A stretch of 64,000 bases of DNA from an uncultured Anaerolinea sp. Lineage in GTDB: Bacteria > Chloroflexota > Anaerolineae > Anaerolineales > UBA4823. The notes under the pieces were generated by a model, which ran no database searches, was not told where the DNA came from, and worked only from the letters and a program-made list of their open reading frames with translations. The stretch covers positions 39,964 through 103,963 of the forward strand of contig CAZDAU010000004.1 in the NCBI GenBank assembly GCA_964503625.1, in the 5' to 3' direction. The position numbers and the translations under genes are program-made. Positions 29,044 to 42,101 of the stretch are shown in pieces (position 1 is the stretch's first letter; every line of letters starts with the position of its first letter).

Positions 29044-31557
29044 TTAGCGGATGACTCGCACCGTCACCCGGGTCCCTTGCCCGGCAACGGAGTCGAGCTC
29101 AAGCTGCCCGCCAAGGGCGGCAGCGCGCTCACGCATATTGGCCAGACCCATTCCGCCGTGGGATTTGTCGGCCGGGTCAAAGCCCTGGCCGTTGTCAATG
29201 ATCTCCAGGGTCACCCGGCCATTTTCGGCCCGCAGCGTAACCCGGACGGTGGAAGCATGGGCATGCTTCAGGGTGTTGTTCAATGCTTCTTCTGCTATGC
29301 GAAATAGATTCAAGGTCAGGGTAGGATCCAGGTCTGGATCGCCCTGGACGACCAGACGGGCATCGATACCCGAACGCTTTTCCACCGCTTCCAACCGCCG
29401 CTGCAAGGCGCGGCCCAGTCCTTCATCCAGGTCATTAGAGGGGCGCAGCTCATAAACCAGCAAGCGCATTTCTTTGAGCGCCTGCTGGGCAGCCTGCTCA
29501 ATGCGGGCCAGATGCTGCTCAGCCAATGGTGCATTCCCCTGGCGAAGGACCTTCATACTGGCGCCCGAAAACAATACCTGGCTGTAGAGCAACTGGGTCA
29601 CCGAGTCGTGCAGCTCACGCGCCAGGCGCTGTCGTTCTTGAACCACCGCAGCCAGCTCGGCTTGCTGGGCCAGGCGGGCCCGCTCCACCAGGGCGCCAAT
29701 CTGGTCGGCGATCGTCATGAACAGGGTGATATCTTCTATGGTGTAGTCCAGAATCGTCTCGCCAAACAGGCTGATCAATCCCAACACCTGGCCCTTTGCC
29801 CGCAGGGGCGCTCCAATGTAAGCCCGGCTGCCCCAGCCATCCAAGCCAGCCAGCTCCACAGCGAGGCCAGGCTGGGCATACAGGTCGGGCAACACGAGTG
29901 GATTTGGCGAGCGGATCAAGTTTTGCCAGAAAGCATCCTTTACCGGCAGCTCTTGCAGGGTGGCGGCTGTCCCTGTGGGCAGGTCGCGTTGTGCAGCCAG
30001 GACCAGCATTTGTCCTTTGTCATCCAGGAAGTGAATAGCACCTGAGCGGCTTTTCATTGCCTCCAGGGTGATGGCCAGAACCTGATCAAGCAAAGGATCC
30101 AATGGTAGCGGCTCGCTGGCCACCGCGTTGATCCGGTACAGGGTAGATAGGTGTTGGGTGCGAATGGCGACCTGCTTTTCCAGGGCTTCCAGCACCACCG
30201 CTCGCCGGAGCGAGGCGCCGGCAATCTCAGCCACAGCATTAAAAAGACGGATGCTGCGGACAGTGAACCTGCGCCGAGCATCGAAGACCAGGCACAGCAA
30301 ACCAAAGACCGCCTCACCCGTCTTGAGCGGCACCAAGACGGCAGACTGACCCTGACCAAAGAGGGCTGAAAAGAAGCCGGGGATCGAGGGACTTTCGGCT
30401 GCGGCGCGCTGGAGAAATTCGGCTGTCTCTGGGATGACCAGGAGCTGTCCGCTGTGCATGGTCTTCCACAGGACATCGTTTTCAGGGTCTTGGGTCTCTT
30501 TGAATGGATCGCGATAGGGATGAGACAACCCAACCAGCCGCTCATCCAGGCTGGCTTTGACCACCAGGCGGGTGCCTGTCCGGTCTGGGGAAAGGAGCGC
30601 GCTGCGGCTGGCTTCAAAAAAACGGGTGATGTGATCCAAGATCGCCAGCAGGGTATTGGAGCCTGAGCGCTCTGCACCGCTGCTTTCTGCCTGCCCCAAG
30701 GCAAAAGAGATGGTGGAGAGCACTTCTAGCTCTTCAGTGCGGCGGTGTGATTGCTCGCTCAGCCACACCCGCTCCAGGACCTGGGCTACCTGGGAAGCAA
30801 ACATCTGCATCGTTTTTGCGTCATCCTGGCTGTAAGCGTTGGGGGTCAGGGCTCCCAGCGAGATGAAGCCCAACATTTGCTGCCCAGCCAGAAGCGGCGC
30901 GCCCAGCCAACCGCGCACCGATTGGATATCTGGCCAGCGATCGAAGCGATGGTCGCTCTGGACATCGGCCACGATCAGCGGCCGGCCGGCGCTGCGCATC
31001 TCTGCAACCAACGGGTCTTCGTCCAGGTGAATTGCAGCAGATATTTCAGCGTTGCGGTCTGCCAGGACAATGCGCTCATTTTCATCTACCAGGAATAGCC
31101 CGGCGCGGTCATAATGGATCAATCCATGCAAGTTGACCAGCAGCGCCTCCAGGGTCTGTTTCAGATCGCCAGCGCCTGCCAGGGCGGCCATCACATCGCG
31201 CATCACTTCAGCTTCCTGCCGGCGCTGGTGTTCGCCGCGGCGGTCCACCCAGAGCAATTGCAGCGCAGGCTCACCCCGATAGATCGATTGGGAGATCAGG
31301 ATATCCACACAGCCGGCAACCTGCCCCCAATTTGTTGGACAGATTCCTTCCAGCAGGACCGGTTGCTCACGCTCTGCCAGGCGCAAGGCCTGGCGCACCC
31401 GCTTGCGATCCCTGGGATGGAAGATCTTTATCAGTTCCGCGCCCAAAGCAAAATTTGGATCGCCCGCGCACATGCGGTCAGCCTGGGGATCGGCAAAGAC
31501 GATGCACCCATCCTGAACAAGGATGAAACCATACGGCGTTCCGTCTGGAATGGTCAT
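29044..31557 (-). CDS. Cytoplasmic sensor histidine kinase (PAS-like, three GAF, HisKA_3, HATPase)
   Basis: ERQRLARELHDSV; EEALNN, DNGQGF, GMGLANM; repeated GAF-like segments; no TM. Confidence 0.9.
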   Translation of the reverse strand: MTIPDGTPYGFILVQDGCIVFADPQADRMCAGDPNFALGAELIKIFHPRDRKRVRQALRLAEREQPVLLEGICPTNWGQVAGCVDILISQSIYRGEPALQLLWVDRRGEHQRRQEAEVMRDVMAALAGAGDLKQTLEALLVNLHGLIHYDRAGLFLVDENERIVLADRNAEISAAIHLDEDPLVAEMRSAGRPLIVADVQSDHRFDRWPDIQSVRGWLGAPLLAGQQMLGFISLGALTPNAYSQDDAKTMQMFASQVAQVLERVWLSEQSHRRTEELEVLSTISFALGQAESSGAERSGSNTLLAILDHITRFFEASRSALLSPDRTGTRLVVKASLDERLVGLSHPYRDPFKETQDPENDVLWKTMHSGQLLVIPETAEFLQRAAAESPSIPGFFSALFGQGQSAVLVPLKTGEAVFGLLCLVFDARRRFTVRSIRLFNAVAEIAGASLRRAVVLEALEKQVAIRTQHLSTLYRINAVASEPLPLDPLLDQVLAITLEAMKSRSGAIHFLDDKGQMLVLAAQRDLPTGTAATLQELPVKDAFWQNLIRSPNPLVLPDLYAQPGLAVELAGLDGWGSRAYIGAPLRAKGQVLGLISLFGETILDYTIEDITLFMTIADQIGALVERARLAQQAELAAVVQERQRLARELHDSVTQLLYSQVLFSGASMKVLRQGNAPLAEQHLARIEQAAQQALKEMRLLVYELRPSNDLDEGLGRALQRRLEAVEKRSGIDARLVVQGDPDLDPTLTLNLFRIAEEALNNTLKHAHASTVRVTLRAENGRVTLEIIDNGQGFDPADKSHGGMGLANMRERAAALGGQLELDSVAGQGTRVTVRVIR

Positions 31558-31698: not shown

Positions 31699-32262
31699 TC
31701 AAGCGGCTGGGGCAGGCTCGGCGGTCTCAGCAACCGGCTCGAGGTTGCCACGGCCATTGCTTTTTTCGCCAGCCGGTCCATCCAATTTTTGCCCGGTCTT
31801 CCTGGCTGCATCGCTGTTCTTTGCCGCCTGTTGTTGAGCCTGGCGGGCGCGGCGATACGCCGGGCTGTAAACAACGATTGCCTCGACAAAGACCTGGCGC
31901 ATTCTCGGATCCTGATCCAGGCTGCCATCAATCAGTTGCGCCAGGTTAAAATCCAGGCTGTCGGCAAATTCTTCCAAGGAGCGCCGAAAGGCCCAGGCTT
32001 CAGATTCCGAGAGGCTGGAAAGCCAGGTTTTGAAATCCTGGGGAAACAGGGCTGCGCCCTGGCCAAGTGCCCAGGCGCGGAAAGCTTCCGTTTCAGCCCG
32101 GCGGTTGAAAAGCCCACGCCAGCGCTCCCCCAGCCACCCAGTCCAGCGTTTGGTGGAAGCAACGGCTCTGCCTGTTGCACCATCCAGACGCTCGCCAAAA
32201 CGGCTAGACGCCAGCAGATAGCCCAGCAGGGCAAATAAAACCAACAGACTAAGCAGGTACAT
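31699..32262 (-). CDS. Hypothetical protein with N-terminal TM helix
   Basis: GGAG 6 nt before ATG; hydrophobic N-terminus ending GYLLASSRF. Confidence 0.7.
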   Translation of the reverse strand: MYLLSLLVLFALLGYLLASSRFGERLDGATGRAVASTKRWTGWLGERWRGLFNRRAETEAFRAWALGQGAALFPQDFKTWLSSLSESEAWAFRRSLEEFADSLDFNLAQLIDGSLDQDPRMRQVFVEAIVVYSPAYRRARQAQQQAAKNSDAARKTGQKLDGPAGEKSNGRGNLEPVAETAEPAPAA

Positions 32263-32411: not shown

Positions 32412-35255
32412 TCAGGACAAGTTTTTTGCCCGAGCGTTTGCATCGCTTTCAGCCAGCAGGCCGCCATCCAGGGTGAACTTACGCCATTCCGCACTGGCCC
32501 ACAACTCCTGGCGGACCGCCTGTTCAGCCGCCAGCAGGCTGGCATAGCGAGAACCCGGCTGTTTTGCCAGCACTTCCGGCATGCCATCCTCAACGATCCT
32601 GCCGTTTTCGATCACCAGGACACGGGGAAAAGCCAGCGTCTCGCCGACATCGTGGGTGATACAGAGCAGGGTGACGCCATCCCAATGCCGGCGGGCCTGC
32701 TCCAGAAGATTGCGCCGCTTTTCACGGTCCAGGCCGCGGAAAGGCTCATCCAGGATTACCAGGCGGGCCCCAACGCGGAGCATGGCTCTTCCCAGGCGCA
32801 CGCGCTGGCCCTCGCCACCGGAAACCAGGCCGCCTCCTTCGCCCAGGGGGGTCTTCAACCCGTCAGGCAGCCGATCCAGCACATCGTACAGGTCCGCCGA
32901 TTGGATCACTTCGCTCAACGGCCGGGCTTCGCTTTGCTCCATGCCATAGCGTAAATTATCGTACAAGGAGCGGTTCCAGAGCTGCACTGCCGGGTCCACC
33001 CAGGTGGTCTGGCGGCGCAAAGACTGCAGGCTGTTTCCATCCAGGGGCTGGCCATCCACTTGGATGCTACCCTGCGATGGCCGGTGCCAGCCCAAGAGCA
33101 AGCCAACCAGGCTGGATTTGCCTGCGCCTGACGGACCGACGATGGCCAGATGCTCGCCTGGCTGGATGTTCAGATTGATCCCCTCCAGGATAACGTGCCC
33201 GCCCGCTTGCAAGGTCACTTGCTGGATATCGATGCTCACCGGGGCAGAGACGGCTGGCTGAAGCATATCTTTTTGCTTCTCTGGGCTTTGAGACTCTATC
33301 GGCTGCGCCGCCCAGGCTTCTTCCTCATCCGGCGCGGTCAGTGGCTCCAGCAAGCGCAGGACCAAGTTGCGCTGCATGGGATACTGCTGAATCAAATCTG
33401 CCAGCGACTGGCCCAGAGCTGGTAGGCTGAGAGTCCAGTAGAAGAGCAGCAGGATCTCGTTGACATCACCGCCTTTCAAGAGGTAATTGACAATTATCAA
33501 AATGGCAAAGGCAGAGTACATCAAGGCGCCCAGAGCCTGTAAAATTGAGGCCAGGTTGTAGGATTCTCGCCCTGTGCGCACCCATTCATAGAGCTGGGTC
33601 TCGTGCTGACGGCGCATGGCCCGCTCAGCGCCATGGGTGCGCACAGGCACCAGTCCAAGCAGGGCGTCCAGGTAAAAGCGGCTCAAAGCCCCCGTGTGCG
33701 TGCGCAGGCGCAGGTCGCGCTCTTCCAGCAGCGGGCGGCTGGCAAAGGACAGGCCTACGAAGAAGGCCGTGCCCAAGATCGCCAATGGCGCGCTGATCGG
33801 ATCCAGCCAGATCACCCCAATCATGGTCAGGATGAGCTGGAAACCCGTCCGCAACAGGCCCACCCCCAGGTTGGGCAACGAGCGCAGGGCGCGCAGGTCA
33901 TGAGCGCGCTGGGTCATGTCGGAAGTCAGGCGGCTGCGGAAGTAGCGATCACCCAGGCGCGGGATTTTCTCCAGGAAGGCGATCCGCAGGCGGGCCTCCA
34001 GCCGCCGGCCCATGCGCAAAACCGTGGCGCTGATCGGAAATTCCAGCAGCAGAAGCGCCAGGACAAAAGCCAGCAAAGACAGGGAAGCCAGGATCCGCTG
34101 CGAGACCAGGGTCAGGTTCTGGCCAATGCGGATCATCCCCTGGAAAAGCAACGCTTCAATCAACACGCCCAGGGTTGCCAGGAACAAGGAAAGGACCAAC
34201 AAAGCAGGCGTGAGCAGGCCATCCTGGCGCAGGGCTTTCCAGACTTCTCTTTCCGGCCGCTGGACCGGCTCCTTGAGCGCTGCTTCCAGATCGGGGGGCA
34301 GCAAGACAGCCTGCGATATGCCGGCATCTTCTTGCGGGCCAGCCATTGCCGCGGCAGGTTTGCGTCCCAAAATGCGCACAAGCACTGCGCCACGCAAAAG
34401 CAGGTGCTGCAGCGGCTCTGTGCCGCTGGCCTGGGCTTCATTCTCAATAACGGGCAAGACCGACCAATAAGCCGCCGGGATCACCAGGCTCTCTGGGGCC
34501 TGATCTTGCAGCACCGATCCCTGGCGGCTTTCAACTTCGGGGAGAGGGCCAACCAGGTTGAGGCGATAGAAACGCTCCAGCACCCGACCCGCCTCGCTGC
34601 CAGCGAGCAGGCCGCGCGCCCGCACCAGGGAGGCGGTCATGCGCGTGGCTGCGTCCAGGGTGGCCAGGGCGCGCCAGCCAGGATCTTGCAGCGCGTCTTC
34701 AATCAACCGAGAGGCTTCCTGGTCGGCGATTTTTAAATCGGCCATCCGCCGGCGCAATGGCGCCAGCAAGCCTTCCGAACCAGCCCAAGCGCGCCAATCC
34801 TGGACCGGCACCGGAAACGAATGAATGTATAACTCTTGCTGGAAACGCTTCCAGCTTGGCCAGCGCCGTCCGGTAGCCGGATCCATCACCTGCAGCCTGT
34901 TCCCCACCCGGTTCCAGACCACCAGGAAGTGGGTCAATCCACTGGGCCGCTGAACCACCACAATGGCCGGCAGAGCCTGGGCTTCATCGAGCACCAGATG
35001 GTCCGCAGGGAGCATCACCTGTTCCGCCTGCAGGCCAAGCTGGATGGCAATATCTTCAATTGTGTTGATCGAAGTGCCGTCCACATCGGTCTGGCAGGCT
35101 TCGCGCAGGCGCCCGTAGCTCACCGGGATGTTGAAACCCTCCAGCAGGGATTTAAGCGCCGCCGGCCCGCAATCCATCGCTGAGGTCTGTACTACCTCAG
35201 GGGCAAAGAAACGTTGGCCCGGAACTGGCACTTCAAGACGCATGATGTGGGTCAA
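32412..35255 (-). CDS. Peptidase C39-containing ABC exporter (PCAT)
   Basis: QTSAMDCG, THFLVV, VMDP catalytic motifs; TMD; GPSGAGKS, VSGGE, ILDEP, ITHD. Confidence 0.92.
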   Translation of the reverse strand: MTHIMRLEVPVPGQRFFAPEVVQTSAMDCGPAALKSLLEGFNIPVSYGRLREACQTDVDGTSINTIEDIAIQLGLQAEQVMLPADHLVLDEAQALPAIVVVQRPSGLTHFLVVWNRVGNRLQVMDPATGRRWPSWKRFQQELYIHSFPVPVQDWRAWAGSEGLLAPLRRRMADLKIADQEASRLIEDALQDPGWRALATLDAATRMTASLVRARGLLAGSEAGRVLERFYRLNLVGPLPEVESRQGSVLQDQAPESLVIPAAYWSVLPVIENEAQASGTEPLQHLLLRGAVLVRILGRKPAAAMAGPQEDAGISQAVLLPPDLEAALKEPVQRPEREVWKALRQDGLLTPALLVLSLFLATLGVLIEALLFQGMIRIGQNLTLVSQRILASLSLLAFVLALLLLEFPISATVLRMGRRLEARLRIAFLEKIPRLGDRYFRSRLTSDMTQRAHDLRALRSLPNLGVGLLRTGFQLILTMIGVIWLDPISAPLAILGTAFFVGLSFASRPLLEERDLRLRTHTGALSRFYLDALLGLVPVRTHGAERAMRRQHETQLYEWVRTGRESYNLASILQALGALMYSAFAILIIVNYLLKGGDVNEILLLFYWTLSLPALGQSLADLIQQYPMQRNLVLRLLEPLTAPDEEEAWAAQPIESQSPEKQKDMLQPAVSAPVSIDIQQVTLQAGGHVILEGINLNIQPGEHLAIVGPSGAGKSSLVGLLLGWHRPSQGSIQVDGQPLDGNSLQSLRRQTTWVDPAVQLWNRSLYDNLRYGMEQSEARPLSEVIQSADLYDVLDRLPDGLKTPLGEGGGLVSGGEGQRVRLGRAMLRVGARLVILDEPFRGLDREKRRNLLEQARRHWDGVTLLCITHDVGETLAFPRVLVIENGRIVEDGMPEVLAKQPGSRYASLLAAEQAVRQELWASAEWRKFTLDGGLLAESDANARAKNLS

Positions 35256-35746
35256 TCCTGGGGGTTCTGCGGACTGACAGGCAGCTGGCTGCGGTTGAGG
35301 AATTTACCCGAGGTGCGCAAAACCAGCTCTGCAGGCGTGACATATTCCACTTCCACATCCACCTGGCCGGAGATCTCGCCCTGCTGCACATCAACTGGCA
35401 GCCCGCCAGAAAGCACCATGATTTCAACTTGTTCCCCCTCCCGTGGCAAATCCCAGACCACAGCCGAAAGAGTCAGCGCGGGTTGGTCGGGTCCCTGGCT
35501 CAAGCGCAGGATGGCGGGCATTCCAGGGCGCAGGCGTGAGCGGGACTCTTTTGGGAAAGTGACCAGAATTTTTCCGTCGGCGGCCATTTCCACCGAGTTG
35601 CTGATTTCGTACAGCGTCACTTTGGCCAGGAAAAACCACAGGATCAAGGCCAGCATGATGAAGATGGCAAAAACTAAGCCAATGCGCGTGGCACGGAAAC
35701 TATCCAGGCGCAAGGCGCGCATTGAGCGAGAGAATTGAATGGACAC
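35252..35746 (-). CDS. Truncated HlyD-like membrane-fusion/adaptor protein
   Basis: One N-terminal TM; RLRPGMPA and GQVDVEVEYVTPAELVLR beta-barrel-like segments; only 164 aa; stop overlaps PCAT start. Confidence 0.6.
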   Translation of the reverse strand: MSIQFSRSMRALRLDSFRATRIGLVFAIFIMLALILWFFLAKVTLYEISNSVEMAADGKILVTFPKESRSRLRPGMPAILRLSQGPDQPALTLSAVVWDLPREGEQVEIMVLSGGLPVDVQQGEISGQVDVEVEYVTPAELVLRTSGKFLNRSQLPVSPQNPQD

Positions 35747-35996: not shown

Positions 35997-38201
35997 ATGG
36001 CAGCCAGAGAGCCCAATCTTGAACAGATCGCCTGGCCGGTGACCCGTCTGGGTGAGTTAACCGAAAATCTGGCGCGTAAAGCCGGGCTGACTGCCCGGCT
36101 GGTTCAGTTGCCTCAGCCGCCCGACGGTTTGGGCTTATCCAGCGACGCGGAACTCGGCGCCTGGCTGGACAACGCCGCCGGCTACCTGGGGCTGGAAGCG
36201 GAGCCGGTGAGCGCGCAATACGCCGATCTGGACCTTTTGCTCCAGGCCGGCGGCCCGGCGATCCTGAGGCTGCCAGGCACATCTCCGACAGGCGAATCGC
36301 TCGCCGGCCCTGCTTTTGTGGCGCTGGTGCGCGGCGCATCTAACAAGGTTTCCATCCTGTGCCCAGATCTGCGCGTGCGCCGCCTGAACCTGGCAACGCT
36401 GCAGGCCTTGCTCACCCGGCCTTATGACGCTTATCTGGGGGAGCAAATTGATCAACTGCTGGTCGATGCCGATGTGCCGGCGGAACGGCTGCAGCGTGCC
36501 CGGGCGGCTGTTTTGCGCGACCAGCTCGGCCCTCTGCGGATAGAGGCGGGCTGGCTGCTGCGCCTGCCGCCCTCGGCCAGCCTGCACAACCAGTTCCACC
36601 ATGCCGGGGTTTATCGACCGGTCAGGATCATGCTGTTCATGTATTTTATCCAGCAGTTGCTCTCGGTGGCTTCCTGGTTTGTCATCGGCCGGGGAATTTT
36701 CCAGGGCCATTTTGACCTGGGTTGGCTGGCAGCCTGGGCCATCCTGTTGCTCTCATCTATTCCGGTACAAATCGTTGTCAGCGATGCCCAAAGCGAGCTC
36801 TCGATGAGCGCAGGTGCGCTGTTCAAGCAACGGCTGATCCTGGGCACCCTGAAGCTGGATCCAGAAGAAATTCGCCACCAGGGCATGGGCCAGTTTCTGA
36901 ACCGGGTGATGGAATCTGAGGCGGTGGAGATGCTGGCTCTGAGCGGCGGTTTCACTGCCCTGCTCTCATTTATTGAGCTGGGCCTGGCCGTTGTGATCCT
37001 CTTCAATGGCTCTGGCGGAGCTATCAGCGCCGCCAGCCTGGTGATCTGGGTGTTGCTCACCCTGGTGATGCTGTGGCGCTACTATCAAAACAGCCGCGAA
37101 TGGACTGAGGCCTACCGGGAGATGACCAATCACCTGGTGGAGGAGATGGTTGGCCACCGCACCCGCCTGATCCAGCAAGACCCGCGCCGCTGGCATGAAG
37201 ATGAGGATCAGGAATTGGATCGCTATCTTAAGCTCTCCGAAAGCATGGATCAAACAGGTATCGGGATCAGCTCTTTCATCACCCGGGGCTGGATCCTGGT
37301 CGGCCTGGCGGGGATTGCCCTGGCCTATGTGGCGGGCAATCCCACTCCACAATCGCTGGCGATCAGCCTGGGTGGGATGCTGCTGGCCTCGCAAGGCTTG
37401 GGCAAGCTCACCGCCGGAACACAGAGCTTATCCAGCCTGGCCAACGCCTGGCAACAGGTTGGGCCGCTGTTCAAAGCCGCTGCCCGCCCGCGCCAGTTAC
37501 CTGCCCTGGGCTTCGTCCCGCCGGCTCGCGGCCGGATGCCAGACTCATCGGCTGCAGGGCAGGTCCAGACGGCACCTGCTAACGGACAGCAAGCGTTGAT
37601 TCAGGCCAGGGATGTGAGCTTTCGCTACCGGCCGCAAGGCCGGTCGATCTTGCAGGATTGCACCTTACAGATTTACCCTGGAGATCGACTCTTGTTGGAA
37701 GGACCTTCGGGCGGCGGAAAATCCACCCTTGCGGCTGTGCTCACCGGCTTGCGAGCGCCCGAATCCGGCTCGCTTTTGCTCTGGGGCTTCGACCGCCAAT
37801 TGCTTGGCGTGGAGGAATGGCGCAAACGAGTGGTCATGGCGCCCCAATTCCAGGAAAACTACGTGTTTTCTGAGACGCTGGCGTTTAACTTGCTGATGGG
37901 GCGAGGTTGGCCACCTAAACCCGAGGACCTTGAGGAAGCCGAGAGCATTTGCCAGGAACTGGGCCTGGGCGAGGTGCTCCAGCGTATGCCCTCCGGATTC
38001 CAGCAGATGGTCGGCGAGAGCGGCTGGCAGCTTTCGCATGGCGAGCGCAGCCGGCTGTTCATTGCCCGCACCTTGCTGCAGAAAGCCGACCTGATCGTAT
38101 TGGACGAGAGCTTCGGCGCGTTGGACCCCGAGAACCTGGAGCGCGCTTTGCAGTGTGTGCTGCGACGTGCGCCAACTTTGCTGGTCATCGCACACCCATA
38201 G
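35997..38201 (+). CDS. ABC exporter with inactive C39-like domain (probable heterodimer partner)
   Basis: LGLEAEPV...PAI aligns with the C39 domain but the Cys/His/Asp motifs are absent; GPSGGGKST, LSHGE, VLDES; ends at IAHP. Confidence 0.85.
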   Translation: MAAREPNLEQIAWPVTRLGELTENLARKAGLTARLVQLPQPPDGLGLSSDAELGAWLDNAAGYLGLEAEPVSAQYADLDLLLQAGGPAILRLPGTSPTGESLAGPAFVALVRGASNKVSILCPDLRVRRLNLATLQALLTRPYDAYLGEQIDQLLVDADVPAERLQRARAAVLRDQLGPLRIEAGWLLRLPPSASLHNQFHHAGVYRPVRIMLFMYFIQQLLSVASWFVIGRGIFQGHFDLGWLAAWAILLLSSIPVQIVVSDAQSELSMSAGALFKQRLILGTLKLDPEEIRHQGMGQFLNRVMESEAVEMLALSGGFTALLSFIELGLAVVILFNGSGGAISAASLVIWVLLTLVMLWRYYQNSREWTEAYREMTNHLVEEMVGHRTRLIQQDPRRWHEDEDQELDRYLKLSESMDQTGIGISSFITRGWILVGLAGIALAYVAGNPTPQSLAISLGGMLLASQGLGKLTAGTQSLSSLANAWQQVGPLFKAAARPRQLPALGFVPPARGRMPDSSAAGQVQTAPANGQQALIQARDVSFRYRPQGRSILQDCTLQIYPGDRLLLEGPSGGGKSTLAAVLTGLRAPESGSLLLWGFDRQLLGVEEWRKRVVMAPQFQENYVFSETLAFNLLMGRGWPPKPEDLEEAESICQELGLGEVLQRMPSGFQQMVGESGWQLSHGERSRLFIARTLLQKADLIVLDESFGALDPENLERALQCVLRRAPTLLVIAHP

Positions 38202-38229: not shown

Positions 38230-38238
38230 TGATATAAT
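38230..38238 (+). promoter_or_regulatory. Extended -10 promoter element
   Basis: TGATATAAT about 30 nt upstream of ATG 38268; AAAGGA RBS between them. Confidence 0.55.
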
Positions 38239-38267
38239 ACACAAGATTGGTAAAGGAAACTTACACG

Positions 38268-38450
38268 ATGAAAATTCGCACCGGATTGAAAGCAGGCCAG
38301 GGGTTAGGAGACACCGTTGCCGACCTGGCTCACCTGACCGGCATGGACCAGTTGGCCAGGGTATATGAACAAACCACCGGAAAAAGCTGCGGCTGCGATC
38401 AGCGCCGACAGACGCTCAACCAGCTATTTCCATTCAGACAGAGCGCTTGA
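38268..38450 (+). CDS. 60-aa peptide, candidate PCAT substrate
   Basis: MKIRTGLKAG-QGLGDTVADLAHLTGMDQLARVYEQTTGKSCGCDQRRQTLNQLFPFRQSA; own RBS and extended -10. Confidence 0.75.
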   Translation: MKIRTGLKAGQGLGDTVADLAHLTGMDQLARVYEQTTGKSCGCDQRRQTLNQLFPFRQSA

Positions 38451-38463
38451 CTGAAAACCAGGC

Positions 38464-39483
38464 ATGCCCTTTAGAAGGCTGATTTTCCTTATCTTTGTGG
38501 TTGCCCTGCTGGCCGGGTGTCAGTCTGGGTCGCAACGCAATTGCCCGGATCAGTGTATCAGTGTCAATCTGAATAGCGCCAATTTGCGCGACCAGGATTT
38601 CAGCAACGCCCAGATGATGAATGCAAATTTGACCAAGGCCAACCTGGTTGAAGCCGACCTGAGCAACGCCAACCTGACTGGCGCCACACTCTCGCAAGCA
38701 GACATGGAAAGCGCAAACCTGACCGGGGCGCGCCTGGTTGGGAGCGACCTTTCGCTGGCTAACCTGCGCAATGCCTACCTGGACCAGGCTGATCTGAGCG
38801 GCGCTGATTTGAGCGGGGTCTCGATGATCCGCGTTGACCTGACCAGGACCTTGATGAACGGCGTCCGGCTGGGCGGCGCAGAAATGATTGGCTGCAACCT
38901 GGGCGGTGTGAACCTGAACGGCGTCGAGATGTATGAAGCCAACCTGAGCGGCGCCCTGCTGAATGACAGCAGTCTGAACGGGAGTGTGCTCAGCCTGTCC
39001 AATTTTAACGGCGCCGACCTGCGCCGGGCGCGACTCTCTGGCTCGTGGATAAACCTCGGCCAACTGGTGGGCGCAAACCTGCAAAGCGCCGACCTCACCG
39101 GCAGTACCTTCTTTGGCACCAATCTGACTGGCGCTGATCTTTCCAACGCCAAACTCAACGGCGCTTTTCTGGCCGGGACAGACCTGAGTGGTGCAGACCT
39201 GCGCGGAGCGGACCTGACCGGAGCAATCCTGGAACTGCCGTATCCCCCAAATGCTCCGGCAGGCTTCTCTTATGAAAACCTGACCGGCAGCGAATTTTTA
39301 CAGGCGCTTAACCAGACCGAAATGAGCCGCATCCTGGCCGACCGACGAGTGGCTGCCCTGACCGAGGTGCGCCTGAAGCCATACCTGCATAACGCTATCC
39401 TGCAAGGCGTAATCTACGATGAGAACACGGCCTGGCCCCTGGGCTTTGATATCCCCTCTTCGGCTATCTACCAGGGAAAGTGA
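38464..39483 (+). CDS. Pentapeptide-repeat lipoprotein
   Basis: LLAGC lipobox; many A(D/N)LXX repeats; CPDQC N-cap; YDENTAWPLGF C-cap. Confidence 0.9.
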   Translation: MPFRRLIFLIFVVALLAGCQSGSQRNCPDQCISVNLNSANLRDQDFSNAQMMNANLTKANLVEADLSNANLTGATLSQADMESANLTGARLVGSDLSLANLRNAYLDQADLSGADLSGVSMIRVDLTRTLMNGVRLGGAEMIGCNLGGVNLNGVEMYEANLSGALLNDSSLNGSVLSLSNFNGADLRRARLSGSWINLGQLVGANLQSADLTGSTFFGTNLTGADLSNAKLNGAFLAGTDLSGADLRGADLTGAILELPYPPNAPAGFSYENLTGSEFLQALNQTEMSRILADRRVAALTEVRLKPYLHNAILQGVIYDENTAWPLGFDIPSSAIYQGK

Positions 39484-41315
39484 CTTTGGACATGGTTGAT
39501 AAATCACCTGCTCAGAAAAAGAAATTTGTCTGGCGTGAATGGCTTGATGAAGCCGCGGTGCTGCTGGTGGTCCTGGCAGTCATTGGCAGCATTTATCTGT
39601 TTCGCAACCTGAGCTGCCCGCCGCGCTGCACCAATGCCAACCTGACTGGCAGGGATTTCCGTGACAAACCGCTGGACGGCGCTGACTTCACCAATGCCAT
39701 CCTGAATGGCGCGGATTTCACCGGCGCATCCCTGCGCGGTGCCAAACTTAACGGGGCCGACCTGAGCGGCTCGGTCCTGGTCTCCTCAAACCTGGCTGAG
39801 GCCGATTTTACCGACGCCATCCTGTTGGGCGCTCAACTGAACGGCGCCAACCTGACCGGGGCAACCCTGCAGAACACCAACCTGAGCAGCGCCGACCTCT
39901 CCAGCGCCATTCTCAAAGATGTCGACCTGACCCAAGATGTTCAGCTCACCGCCATCCGGTTGAACAAGGCCAACCTGATCGGGGCTAAGCTGAATGGGGC
40001 CAGGCTGAGCGGGGCGCTGATCACGGATGCCAATTTAAACGGGGCCGATCTTTCCGGCGCTGAACTGAGCGGGGTGAACCTGGAAGGTTCCGAAATGTAC
40101 GGCGCCAACCTGACCAAAGCAAACTTGCTCGGTGCCACCCTGGACCGAGCAAACCTGGTGGGGGCATCCTTGCCTGGAGCCAACCTGGCCGGCGCCAGCT
40201 TTTTCAACGCTGACCTCTCCGGATCTGATCTGACCAATGCTGACCTGACCGGGATTGTAAGCACCTCCGGGTATTTCGATGGCTCGATCATGACCGGCGC
40301 AAAGCTCAACCGGGCCCGGTTTTATGGCTCCGGGTTGGCCGGGGTGGTGCTGGAAAACGCCGACCTGACGGACGCCCGCTTTGATATTTACGAGCAAAAC
40401 GGCCAAATCACGCGCACTAATCTGGATGGTTCCCTGTTAAACCGGTCCGATCTCTCCGGCAGTTACCTGGCCGGCGCAACCCTTGCCGGGGCAGATTTGA
40501 CCCAGGCAGACCTGAGCCGCAGCGACTCGGCACCGGTCACGATTGTCGACAACCGCCAGATCGGTGGGATTACCCAAACCCTGAAAGCCGTGCTCTACGG
40601 CGCTAACCTTTCTGGAGCCGATTTCCAGGCTGCCAAGCTGGCAAACGCTGATTTGCGTGGCCTGAACCTTTCCAGGGCTAACTTCCGCCATGCTGATTTA
40701 CGCGGCGCTGACCTGAGCGCCGTGAACATGTCTGGAGCCGACCTGCGAGGCGCAAACATGGCAGGCGCTGACCTGGCTAACACCGACATGCTTGGCGCCA
40801 GGCTTGCCGGGGCCAACCTTTCTGGCACCGACCTCTCGGAAGTCAACCTGGATGGCGCTGCCCTGTGGAGCAGCACGCCGGTGACATTCACCGCCGACCT
40901 GACCTACGCAGAGCTGTTTCGTTTCCTGGCGCAAAGCGATTGCTTTAATGGGGATTTTCTGGTGGCGAATAACGGCACAGTAGCCAACGTGCCGGTGCGC
41001 TTTGATGAAGATGCAGGCAGCAACTTTTACTACAGCGAGATCTGGCGCAACGCCCGCGCCTATGTCTGCGCGGCCGACCTGAGCGATACCCGAATGTGGG
41101 GAAAACGTCTCTTGCCAACCTCGCTGGCTGGCGTGAACCTCACTGGCGCCGATCTGCGCTTCACCAATCTTCAGAATGTAAAATTTCAGGAAGAAATCAA
41201 GCTGGAAGACAACCTGAGCTATCTTTTAAAGGCGAACCTGGGCAAAATCGTTTACAACAGCTTCACGTCCTGGCCGAGCGATTTCATCCCCCCAGCCTCG
41301 GCCTCTACAGAGTAG
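39480..41315 (+). CDS. TM-anchored pentapeptide-repeat protein
   Basis: N-terminal TM; CPPRC; long A(D/N)LXX tracts; YNSFTSWPSDF C-cap. Confidence 0.9.
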   Translation: MTLDMVDKSPAQKKKFVWREWLDEAAVLLVVLAVIGSIYLFRNLSCPPRCTNANLTGRDFRDKPLDGADFTNAILNGADFTGASLRGAKLNGADLSGSVLVSSNLAEADFTDAILLGAQLNGANLTGATLQNTNLSSADLSSAILKDVDLTQDVQLTAIRLNKANLIGAKLNGARLSGALITDANLNGADLSGAELSGVNLEGSEMYGANLTKANLLGATLDRANLVGASLPGANLAGASFFNADLSGSDLTNADLTGIVSTSGYFDGSIMTGAKLNRARFYGSGLAGVVLENADLTDARFDIYEQNGQITRTNLDGSLLNRSDLSGSYLAGATLAGADLTQADLSRSDSAPVTIVDNRQIGGITQTLKAVLYGANLSGADFQAAKLANADLRGLNLSRANFRHADLRGADLSAVNMSGADLRGANMAGADLANTDMLGARLAGANLSGTDLSEVNLDGAALWSSTPVTFTADLTYAELFRFLAQSDCFNGDFLVANNGTVANVPVRFDEDAGSNFYYSEIWRNARAYVCAADLSDTRMWGKRLLPTSLAGVNLTGADLRFTNLQNVKFQEEIKLEDNLSYLLKANLGKIVYNSFTSWPSDFIPPASASTE

Positions 41316-41342
41316 GCTCCCGGCCGGTCAACGGGAGGTATC

Positions 41343-42101
41343 ATGACTCAAACGATCACTGTGGCAAATCAGAAGGGCGGGGTGGGTAAGACCACAACCG
41401 CGGTCAACCTGGCGCATGGCCTGGTCTTGCAGGGTAAACGCGTCTTGCTCGTCGATCTGGACCCGCAGGGCCAGTGCGCCACGATCCTGGGATTAAAGCC
41501 CGAGCCGGGCACATTCAACCTGTTAGTGGCTGAATCCCCGTTCAAGCAAGTGACGCGCCTGACCGATCGGAAAGGTCTGCTGGTCATATTGGGAGACCGG
41601 AAGACCTCAACTGCGCAGACCGTGCTCAACGTCCAGCGCACGCCCATTTCGTTCATCCACAGCAAGCTGGTCGTCCCGGCCCAAAAGGATGGACTGGATT
41701 ACATTGTCATCGATACTTCTCCCAGTGTGGGGGAATTGCAAGAACAGGCGCTGTGGGCTGCGGATGGCGTACTGATCCCTTGCGCCGTCGATTACCTGGC
41801 GACCGATGGGGTGTACAACATTGCCCAAACCCTCAAGCGCATCCAGGAGGAGTACAAATGGCAGGGCCGTGTTCTGGGCATCTTGCCCACATTCTATGAT
41901 ACGGTTACCCGAGAGAGTAAAGCCACGTTACAGGACCTGCAAAAGCGCTTTTCCGGCGCCATGCTCAGCCCCATTCACCGTGCCACGATCCTGCGCGAAT
42001 GCGCCGTAGAGGGCAAAACAATTTTCGAGATGGCCCCCGAAAGCCGAGCTGCAAAACAATACCTGGGGCTGGTGGAACATGTCTTGAATTGGGGAGGTTA
42101 G
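41343..42101 (+). CDS. ParA/Soj-family ATPase (no parB nearby)
   Basis: NQKGGVGKTTT, VDLDPQG, IDTSP; GGGAGGT RBS. Confidence 0.9.
   Translation: MTQTITVANQKGGVGKTTTAVNLAHGLVLQGKRVLLVDLDPQGQCATILGLKPEPGTFNLLVAESPFKQVTRLTDRKGLLVILGDRKTSTAQTVLNVQRTPISFIHSKLVVPAQKDGLDYIVIDTSPSVGELQEQALWAADGVLIPCAVDYLATDGVYNIAQTLKRIQEEYKWQGRVLGILPTFYDTVTRESKATLQDLQKRFSGAMLSPIHRATILRECAVEGKTIFEMAPESRAAKQYLGLVEHVLNWGG

Follow-up and report, generated by a model that had tools for sequence, protein, structure and literature searches.

Among the closest described relatives of the system reported here are the exporters of substrates with double-glycine leaders. The canonical leader follows the pattern L(-12)xxxE(-8)L(-7)xxxxG(-2)G(-1), is helical from positions -10 to -4, and carries two leucines that form a hydrophobic knot with the peptidase (PMC6959990). 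The peptidase-containing ABC transporter (PCAT) PCAT1 exports a 66-residue cargo, and its transmembrane domains are unselective for cargo (PMC6959990). LahT150 requires only the last 13 residues of its leader (PMC6363468), and in cyanobacteria the leader consensus is M(R/K)ELX3E(I/L)X2(I/V)XG(G/A) (PMC3140520). In addition, a three-gene cluster for the export of NHLP/Nif11 bacteriocins has been defined by TIGR03796, TIGR03797 and TIGR03794 (Haft et al. 2010, PMC2887384).

The window, by which we mean the whole 64-kb stretch of DNA that was analysed, contains a small gene beside an ABC transporter set. The gene and its start region comprise the following features:

38230..38238, + strand: extended -10-like element TGATATAAT, read from the sequence and matched by TGnTATAAT-like elements across orthologous loci
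38252..38257, + strand: ribosome-binding site AAAGGA, read from the sequence, 10 nt 5' of the ATG, with the purine-rich block kept in orthologues
38268..38450, + strand: gene for a 60-aa peptide, translation MKIRTGLKAGQGLGDTVADLAHLTGMDQLARVYEQTTGKSCGCDQRRQTLNQLFPFRQSA, then a stop codon
38268..38297, + strand: ten-residue leader MKIRTGLKAG with a putative cut after Gly10, a motif also found on unrelated cargo
38298..38450 including the stop codon, + strand: 50-residue cargo, a three-helix domain with C41-G42-C43 (AlphaFold2, phmmer, IMG/VR, BFVD)

The leader, whose consensus among related proteins is M-K-[VI]-[RK]-T-x-[LIV]-[KR]-[AS]-G and which we refer to as the tag, shares several traits with the double-glycine leaders of ComC/ComA, CtA/PCAT1, ProcA/LahT and colicin V/CvaB. 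These likewise end in a small residue followed by Gly (A9-G10 here), adjoin an ABC exporter with an intact C39 Gln/Cys/His/Asp set, and use one tag for many unrelated cargoes; the 50-aa cargo also falls inside the known size range (CtA, 66 aa). The preliminary description had read the AG end as a double-glycine-type site, and this reading held throughout the tagged ORFs described below, with [AS]-G at -2/-1 in all 35 from related loci and at least 168 from metagenomes, and GG instead of AG in the homologues P0048 and P0060. Its remark that the leader is much shorter than canonical ones was equally borne out, since double-glycine leaders span about 15-80 residues whereas the tag has 10, below the 13-residue minimum of LahT150. 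Moreover, double-glycine leaders are acidic but the tag is basic (Lys2, Arg4, Lys8); it lacks the canonical Leu(-12), Glu(-8) and Leu(-7), with Val/Ile at -8 and Arg/Lys/Gln at -7, and instead has an invariant Thr at -6 and a Leu/Ile hydrophobic residue at -4, in an alternating pattern that is strand-like where the canonical leader is helical. Judged by its sequence, the tag would thus play a double-glycine-leader-like role but departs from canonical leaders in two defining features, the L/E/L consensus and the length. As it has no knot residues and fewer than 13 residues, its recognition by a C39 domain would have to differ.

The 60-aa ORF is a genuine, conserved gene, and its conservation goes well beyond chance. 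Its division into a 10-aa leader ending in KAG and a GLGDT...CGC core, as first described, was confirmed by the window sequence and by 47 homologues of about 60 aa from metagenomes and MAGs (61-91% identity), every one of them annotated 'hypothetical protein'. The gene was found in 26 genome loci, nearly all from Anaerolineae/Chloroflexota, with the addition of Desulfonema magnum and one Bacteroidetes MAG. Fifteen columns of the homologue alignment are invariant (G10, G12, L13, G14, D15, A18, D27, A30, Y33, C41, G42, C43, R46, L50 and N51). In the leader the codons differ synonymously from locus to locus, and selection therefore acts at the level of the peptide. A 67-aa reading from a TTG at 38247 was also considered and is unsupported, because conservation begins at the ATG. 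Two homologues of the window peptide, P0001 and P0005, have in-frame upstream sequence with duplicated leader units (MEIRTGLKTRTGLKIHTGLKAG...), a pattern that suggests slippage-type duplication inside the leader-coding region in some strains. Independent expression had been proposed from the extended -10 element and the AAAGGA ribosome-binding site. Both are present, and a TGnTATAAT-like -10 together with a purine-rich ribosome-binding site is kept in most orthologous loci, about 25-35 nt 5' of the ATG, in a spacer that has otherwise diverged. A scan for two-hexamer (-35/-10) consensus promoters and terminators found nothing, and cross-locus conservation is the one line of evidence for the promoter.

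To follow the tag beyond this gene, we searched start codons in the window and 32 cellular loci with the pattern [MVL][KRNHQ][VIL][RKNQHE][TS][GDNK][ILVMF].[AGS]G. The tag occurred 35 times in 490 kb of non-redundant related-locus sequence, compared to 0 in 30 shuffles; the peptide ORF is the sole tagged gene of the window. Besides 21 ORFs with the C-G-C domain, there were 14 with unrelated cargo, including helical peptides of about 50 aa, Cys/Tyr-rich proteins and one true LysM domain (PF01476, 34.5 bits against a cutoff of 20.9), which directly follows the tag and has no Sec signal. The substrate of LysM domains, peptidoglycan, is extracytoplasmic. A metagenome scan with a leader-only DNA pattern, in which K was fixed at position 8, covered at least 120 loci and returned at least 168 distinct complete tagged ORFs, with a median of 26 aa among the matches listed. 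Among these listed matches, 72 had cores of up to 12 aa, often in tandem (SALWGS-type; VPPDPC x4; PRDCGGGG x8), 36 had cores of 13-25 aa, 18 were of an NHN(Q/E)T type that included repeated (LKVKTNVKAGG...NHNQT..RG)n cassettes, 14 were helical peptides, five had C-G-C domains and one had a LysM domain. Homologues of residues 1-10 thus occur on both the 35 start-codon ORFs and the metagenome ORFs, and by its sequence distribution the tag is modular and heads many unrelated small proteins. None of the NCBIfam models covers it, and neither the leader, the NHNQT cassettes nor the phage-domain motif is described in the literature searched, which took in few subscription journals. Most probably the tag represents an undescribed type of secretion leader that is very short.

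The boundary that had been proposed after G10 coincides with three breaks. Mutual similarity between the cargo classes stops exactly at G10, several C-G-C homologues have 1-13 additional residues that separate G10 from GLGD, and the confidently predicted fold starts at this point. Some distant family members have further residues ahead of the tag motif.

Several of the tagged ORFs have unusual architectures. At L142 two ORFs (43-267 and 518-784, both + strand) begin with MKIRTx[VI]K[AS]G and also contain an NHNE motif, a leader of the class I lanthipeptide type and a Cys-rich core. These lanthipeptide leaders score 33-34 bits with NF038153 (cutoff 22), so a known RiPP leader can stand behind the short tag. 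ORFs of the form (LKVKTNVKAGG - 3 aa - NHNQT - 2 aa - RG)n, reaching 275-450 aa, were found at ten loci (L120, L128, L133, L161, L202, L208, L209, L222, L227 and L234). In these the leader-like motif is repeated within the ORF, with Leu replacing Met, and their sequence suggests multi-site processing of a polyprotein-like precursor. A tandem array on a Desulfobacterota-like contig (L137:2365-3609, - strand) encodes four tagged Lys-rich cationic peptides, e.g. MKVKTDVKAG|GFFGKLKKGLASIKGKMSGRKKSK..., and also one tagged C-G-C gene that resembles the Desulfonema magnum copy. The shortest tagged ORFs, of 16-31 aa, have conserved 6-aa cores such as SALWGS, NVLWGS and NALWGT and are often in tandem (L124, L138, L139, L150, L140, L197 and others); the same group includes VPPDPC x4 and PRDCGGGG... 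x8, and its products are pheromone- or RiPP-sized. One such ORF, at L150, adjoins a homologue of the window's C39 transporter.

We examined the cargo by structure prediction and family searches. In an AlphaFold2 model built from a 70-sequence alignment, residues 11-50 have a pLDDT of 89-95 and form helices at 13-24, 26-37 and 43-53, with C-G-C in the loop preceding helix 3, while residues 1-10 have a pLDDT below 50 and lie outside the predicted fold. An exhaustive phmmer search (E <= 0.001) recovered a family of 802 cluster representatives, nearly all of which align to query residues 10-57 alone. Most family members have no N-terminal tag. The consensus of the representatives is [SK][RK]GLGDT[VI]AK[IV]T.ATG[LI]DK[LV]A..Y..[IV]TGK.CGC..R...LN.L.PY, and the C-G-C domain is usually C-terminal in proteins of 50-160 aa whose N-terminal extensions are unrelated to each other. 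Three matches of more than 1,200 aa (P0178, P0182 and P0195) are WD40 repeat proteins that were matched via a short TGKP repeat, and were discarded as spurious.

The domain is also found in phages. It occurs in Microcystis phage Mel-JY01 and one uncultured podovirus (tblastn against the two genomes, E 4e-7 and 4e-6) and on at least 549 IMG/VR contigs, which were scanned with alignment A3, as A2 was too diverse. The IMG/VR copies are either standalone (about 54 aa) or the N- or C-terminal part of longer proteins. The window peptide itself had no direct match in Pfam, NCBIfam or PHROGs, and the phage-type members match no Pfam family; phage-type and intermediate members match phrog_32048 and phrog_27568, both PHROGs of unknown function. 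A fold search of the PDB with the peptide model gave no meaningful match, and the BFVD matches were solely uncharacterised viral proteins of the same family (TM 0.71-0.79). The statement in the preliminary description that GLGDT...CGC..R...LN..FP resembles a widespread small phage protein was therefore correct, with homologues of residues 11-60 found by phmmer and in IMG/VR, and by sequence and model these residues are a domain homologous to a widespread, uncharacterised family of small phage proteins. The phrog_32048/phrog_27568 proteins (e.g. WWT39382.1 of Microcystis phage Mel-JY01) share about 48 residues with the window peptide at 35-50% identity, in the same order of GLGD, helix, TG turn, helix, C-G-C and R...LN..P[YF]. 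Unlike the window peptide, they have no MKxRTxxKAG tag and usually Ser-Arg/Lys ahead of GLGD, carry unrelated N- or C-terminal extensions, and have no ABC transporter nearby. Export signals are absent from the phage homologues, which presumably function within cells. In 31 of the IMG/VR loci L035-L114 the phage gene directly follows a 163-aa sigma-factor-like ORF and precedes small- and large-terminase-like ORFs, and about 20 others have it flanked by capsid-like and tail-fibre-like ORFs. Phage variants of about 130 aa have an extra C-terminal part with a second Cys pair (CSSC).

The genes around the peptide gene are as follows:

32412..35255, - strand: 947-aa peptidase-containing ABC transporter (C39-ABC), with Pfam Peptidase_C39 (PF03412), ABC_membrane (PF00664) and ABC_tran (PF00005)
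35252..35746, - strand: 164-aa membrane protein, a TM helix and beta-barrel in its AlphaFold2 model, possibly a minimal adaptor
35997..38201, + strand: second ABC transporter (ABC2), 734 aa, with Pfam ABC_tran and a non-catalytic N-terminal domain of about 200 aa
38464..39483, + strand: lipoprotein-type pentapeptide-repeat protein (Pfam), after a 13-nt gap behind the peptide gene
39480..41315, + strand: TM-anchored pentapeptide-repeat protein (Pfam), overlapping the preceding gene by 4 nt
41343..42101, + strand: ParA-like ATPase (Pfam)

The peptide gene lies 66 nt 3' of ABC2 and is divergent from the genes for the 164-aa protein and C39-ABC. The C39 domain aligns with the peptidase domains of ComA, PCAT1 and LahT (3K8U, 4RY2, 6MPZ), and among the homologues beside tagged genes the catalytic residues Gln23, Cys29 and His109 are present in 31 of 31 and Asp125 in 30 of 31. 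With its C39 domain bearing Gln/Cys/His/Asp, transmembrane domain and ATPase, the 947-aa protein is, by its sequence, a PCAT. The 164-aa protein, whose gene adjoins C39-ABC in all loci compared, has no match to Pfam, NCBIfam or HlyD and no coiled-coil hairpin; its AlphaFold2 model (pLDDT 79) consists of a TM helix at 3-39 and a six-stranded barrel. Of the parts of an HlyD-type membrane fusion protein (TM anchor, beta-barrel, lipoyl domain and alpha-helical hairpin) the model shows the first two. Foldseek matched the barrel to those of the adaptors BesA, EmrA and MacA at E 2e-3 to 4e-2, with generic barrels scoring equally well, so that the protein may be a minimal adaptor. For the N-terminal domain of ABC2 a sequence search of the PDB was empty, and its homologues have no conserved Cys or His. 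Comparison with the C39 profile was weak but congruent (hhalign, E 6e-4, probability 29%), and the domain may be a degenerate C39-like domain.

This gene set is the same as in the NHLP/Nif11 cluster, namely an ABC protein with peptidase, an ABC protein without it and a small membrane adaptor-like protein, and in NCBIfam the two ABC proteins come closest, or nearly so, to TIGR03796 and TIGR03797. However, the scores lie far under the cutoffs (197.2 against 853.3 for TIGR03796 and 122.1 against 709.4 for TIGR03797), TIGR03794 does not match the 164-aa protein, and NHLP/Nif11 substrates have leader domains of 70-80 aa rather than a 10-aa tag. The peptide also resembles class II microcins and unmodified class II bacteriocins in being a small unmodified protein with a putative cleavable N-terminal tag, its own promoter and an adjoining exporter. 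It differs from them in that its cargo is a conserved folded domain instead of a variable membrane-active peptide, no immunity gene was identified here, and it is not known to have antibacterial activity. Compared to RiPP precursors, it has no maturase nearby, and its core is conserved and folded, not variable.

About 20 Anaerolineae loci share the block of transporter and peptide genes in synteny. Since this also holds for unrelated neighbours (Band7, inositol phosphatase), rearranged loci are the informative cases, and the adjacency in Anaerolineae could be largely inherited synteny. At L017 the peptide gene stays by the transporter genes while the pentapeptide and ParA genes are elsewhere. 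At L025 and L028 it directly follows the C39-ABC and 164-aa genes, with the pentapeptide genes 5 kb off, and at L116 the gene for a 46%-identical peptide has homologues of C39-ABC and ABC2 on its two sides, in a new orientation. Four tagged ORFs without the C-G-C domain (at L017, L018, L019 and L025) are part of the transporter locus itself, between the 164-aa gene and the ABC2 or peptide gene. The linkage extends to other cargo: of 34 contigs of at least 5 kb that were retrieved with the leader pattern alone and carry tagged non-CGC cargo, 10 encode transporter-set homologues among the matches listed. Alignments of these homologues begin near residue 14 for C39-ABC (37-63% identity) and near residue 5 for ABC2, and some of the contigs also encode a 164-aa-like protein. 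This bears out the earlier statement that MKxKTxxKAG N-termini occur on small ORFs beside similar ABC pairs, as many unrelated tagged ORFs do have adjoining transporter homologues. No transporter-set homologue was found in the 80 viral loci (710 kb) that carry the domain without a leader. Two cellular loci, L022 (a Chloroflexota MAG) and L030 (Desulfonema magnum), keep the N-terminal motif and have no ABC gene within 10 kb. No modification enzymes were found in the conserved neighbourhood of the peptide gene. The arrangement at L029 is unreliable, as a masked stretch interrupts the peptide gene.

We propose, and consider it likely, that the peptide is a precursor whose tag is read by the C39 domain, which would cut after Gly10 and export the 50-residue three-helix C-G-C domain. 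The proposal builds on the observed ORF and its conservation, the modular tag, the linked transporter set, whose peptidase has its catalytic residues intact, and the family and predicted fold of the cargo. Transcription would start from the gene's own conserved -10 element and possibly include the downstream pentapeptide-repeat genes. MKIRTGLKAG would act as an unstructured leader recognised by the cytoplasmic C39 domain of the 947-aa transporter, and a cut after Ala9-Gly10 would give a mature product beginning QGLGDT. The leader/cargo junction peptide around this putative cut site reads MKIRTGLKAGQGLGDTVADL. The 50-residue domain would pass out through C39-ABC, which probably works with ABC2 and the small TM-plus-beta-barrel protein; the tag would be the generic address tag of this transporter clade, and the cargo a domain otherwise mainly phage-borne and tagless. 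We infer the cleavage after G10, the export and the three-protein partnership from sequence. The idea in the preliminary description that a phage-like domain has been fused to an export leader is supported in silico by the modular tag, the phage homology and the transporter linkage, with export as its inferred part. Because the L137 array mixes C-G-C cargo with cationic peptides and the layout is class-II-bacteriocin-like, we lean by analogy towards a bacteriocin-like role of the mature domain as an effector in competition or interaction. The invariant C-G-C at a helix N-terminus makes a metal-binding or redox-active disulfide role plausible.

Three other explanations address the same observations. 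One accepts targeting to the transporter but not the cut after G10: the tag could be bound by the ABC2 N-domain, and the product exported uncleaved, cut elsewhere or cut by another protease. The tag indeed lacks canonical C39 recognition features, the repeat-cassette ORFs carry the motif internally, and the conserved, non-catalytic N-domain of ABC2 may be C39-like; HlyB-type transporters have a non-catalytic C39-like N-domain. Nevertheless, the catalytic residues are strictly conserved in the transporters beside tagged genes (save for the one Asp125 exception among 31), [AS]-G or G-G is invariant at -2/-1, and similarity and linkers break exactly past that Gly, which makes this explanation improbable in our view.

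We regard it as quite unlikely that the product is a cytoplasmic phage-type C-G-C protein, with residues 1-10 as a lineage-specific structural or regulatory extension and the ABC genes adjacent through inherited synteny. Such an explanation would suit the leaderless, phage-borne nature of most family members, the absence of a nearby transporter at L022 and L030 and the equal synteny of the Band7 and inositol phosphatase genes, but it does not account for the same ten residues on unrelated cargo, including LysM, or for a transporter linkage that outlasts rearrangements and holds for other cargo on unrelated contigs, and it has to contend with an N-terminus outside the predicted fold. The idea that the tag is a RiPP leader for a modifying enzyme, with the C-G-C cysteines modified before export, draws on the many tagged ORFs with 6-12-aa cores in tandem arrays, which are typical of RiPPs, on the tag that precedes a class I lanthipeptide leader (NF038153) at L142, and on the invariance of both cysteines. 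With no maturase in the conserved neighbourhood, a core conserved over its full length in a confident three-helix fold common to leaderless phage proteins, and the transporter set as the tag's recurrent neighbour, we consider this very unlikely.

If the tag is a true leader for export by C39-ABC, as we propose, its consequences could reach beyond this gene. A broader reading, which we put forward tentatively and hold to have somewhat less than an even chance of being right, is that an undescribed, widespread branch of peptidase-ABC transporters uses MK[VI][KR]Tx[ILV]K[AS]G as its address tag. This tag would be the shortest known leader of the kind, be recognised without a knot and serve hundreds of cargo families, from pheromone-sized cores, cationic peptides and LysM to lanthipeptide precursors, and within the branch Anaerolineae and some Desulfobacterota would have recruited a phage domain to serve as secreted effector. 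The tag seems to label a large secretome without annotation, whose products are missed by current double-glycine models and family libraries. As a true leader, it would be a sequence handle for mining hidden secreted peptides and small proteins in Chloroflexota and other poorly studied soil and sediment phyla. C39 domains that read a short basic signal would broaden the recognition rules of PCATs and yield a minimal secretion tag, and an extracellular role in bacteria would be a first functional foothold for a very common small-protein domain of phages.

Finally, we considered the remaining neighbours of the block. The genes from 38464 to 42101 are possibly co-transcribed with the peptide gene, and most Anaerolineae loci keep the pentapeptide and ParA genes in synteny. 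Both pentapeptide-repeat domains are predicted to face outward. A role for the pentapeptide-repeat proteins as obligate partners is unsupported, because they are separated from the peptide at L017, L025 and L028. Three further genes, all on the minus strand, lie on either side:

29044-31557, - strand: 837-aa histidine kinase with PAS, three GAF and HisKA_3 domains
31699-32262, - strand: 187-aa protein with an N-terminal TM helix and a charged segment
42191-42475, - strand: 94-aa paralogue of the 187-aa protein, with an N-terminal TM helix and a similar charged segment

The two paralogues, which have no family match, flank the block, one of them just downstream of C39-ABC. A conserved peptide-pheromone circuit with the neighbouring GAF histidine kinase was rejected, since L004 and other loci lack the kinase at this position. 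At L001, a homologue of the kinase is paired with a LuxR-type response regulator and adjoins the transporter.
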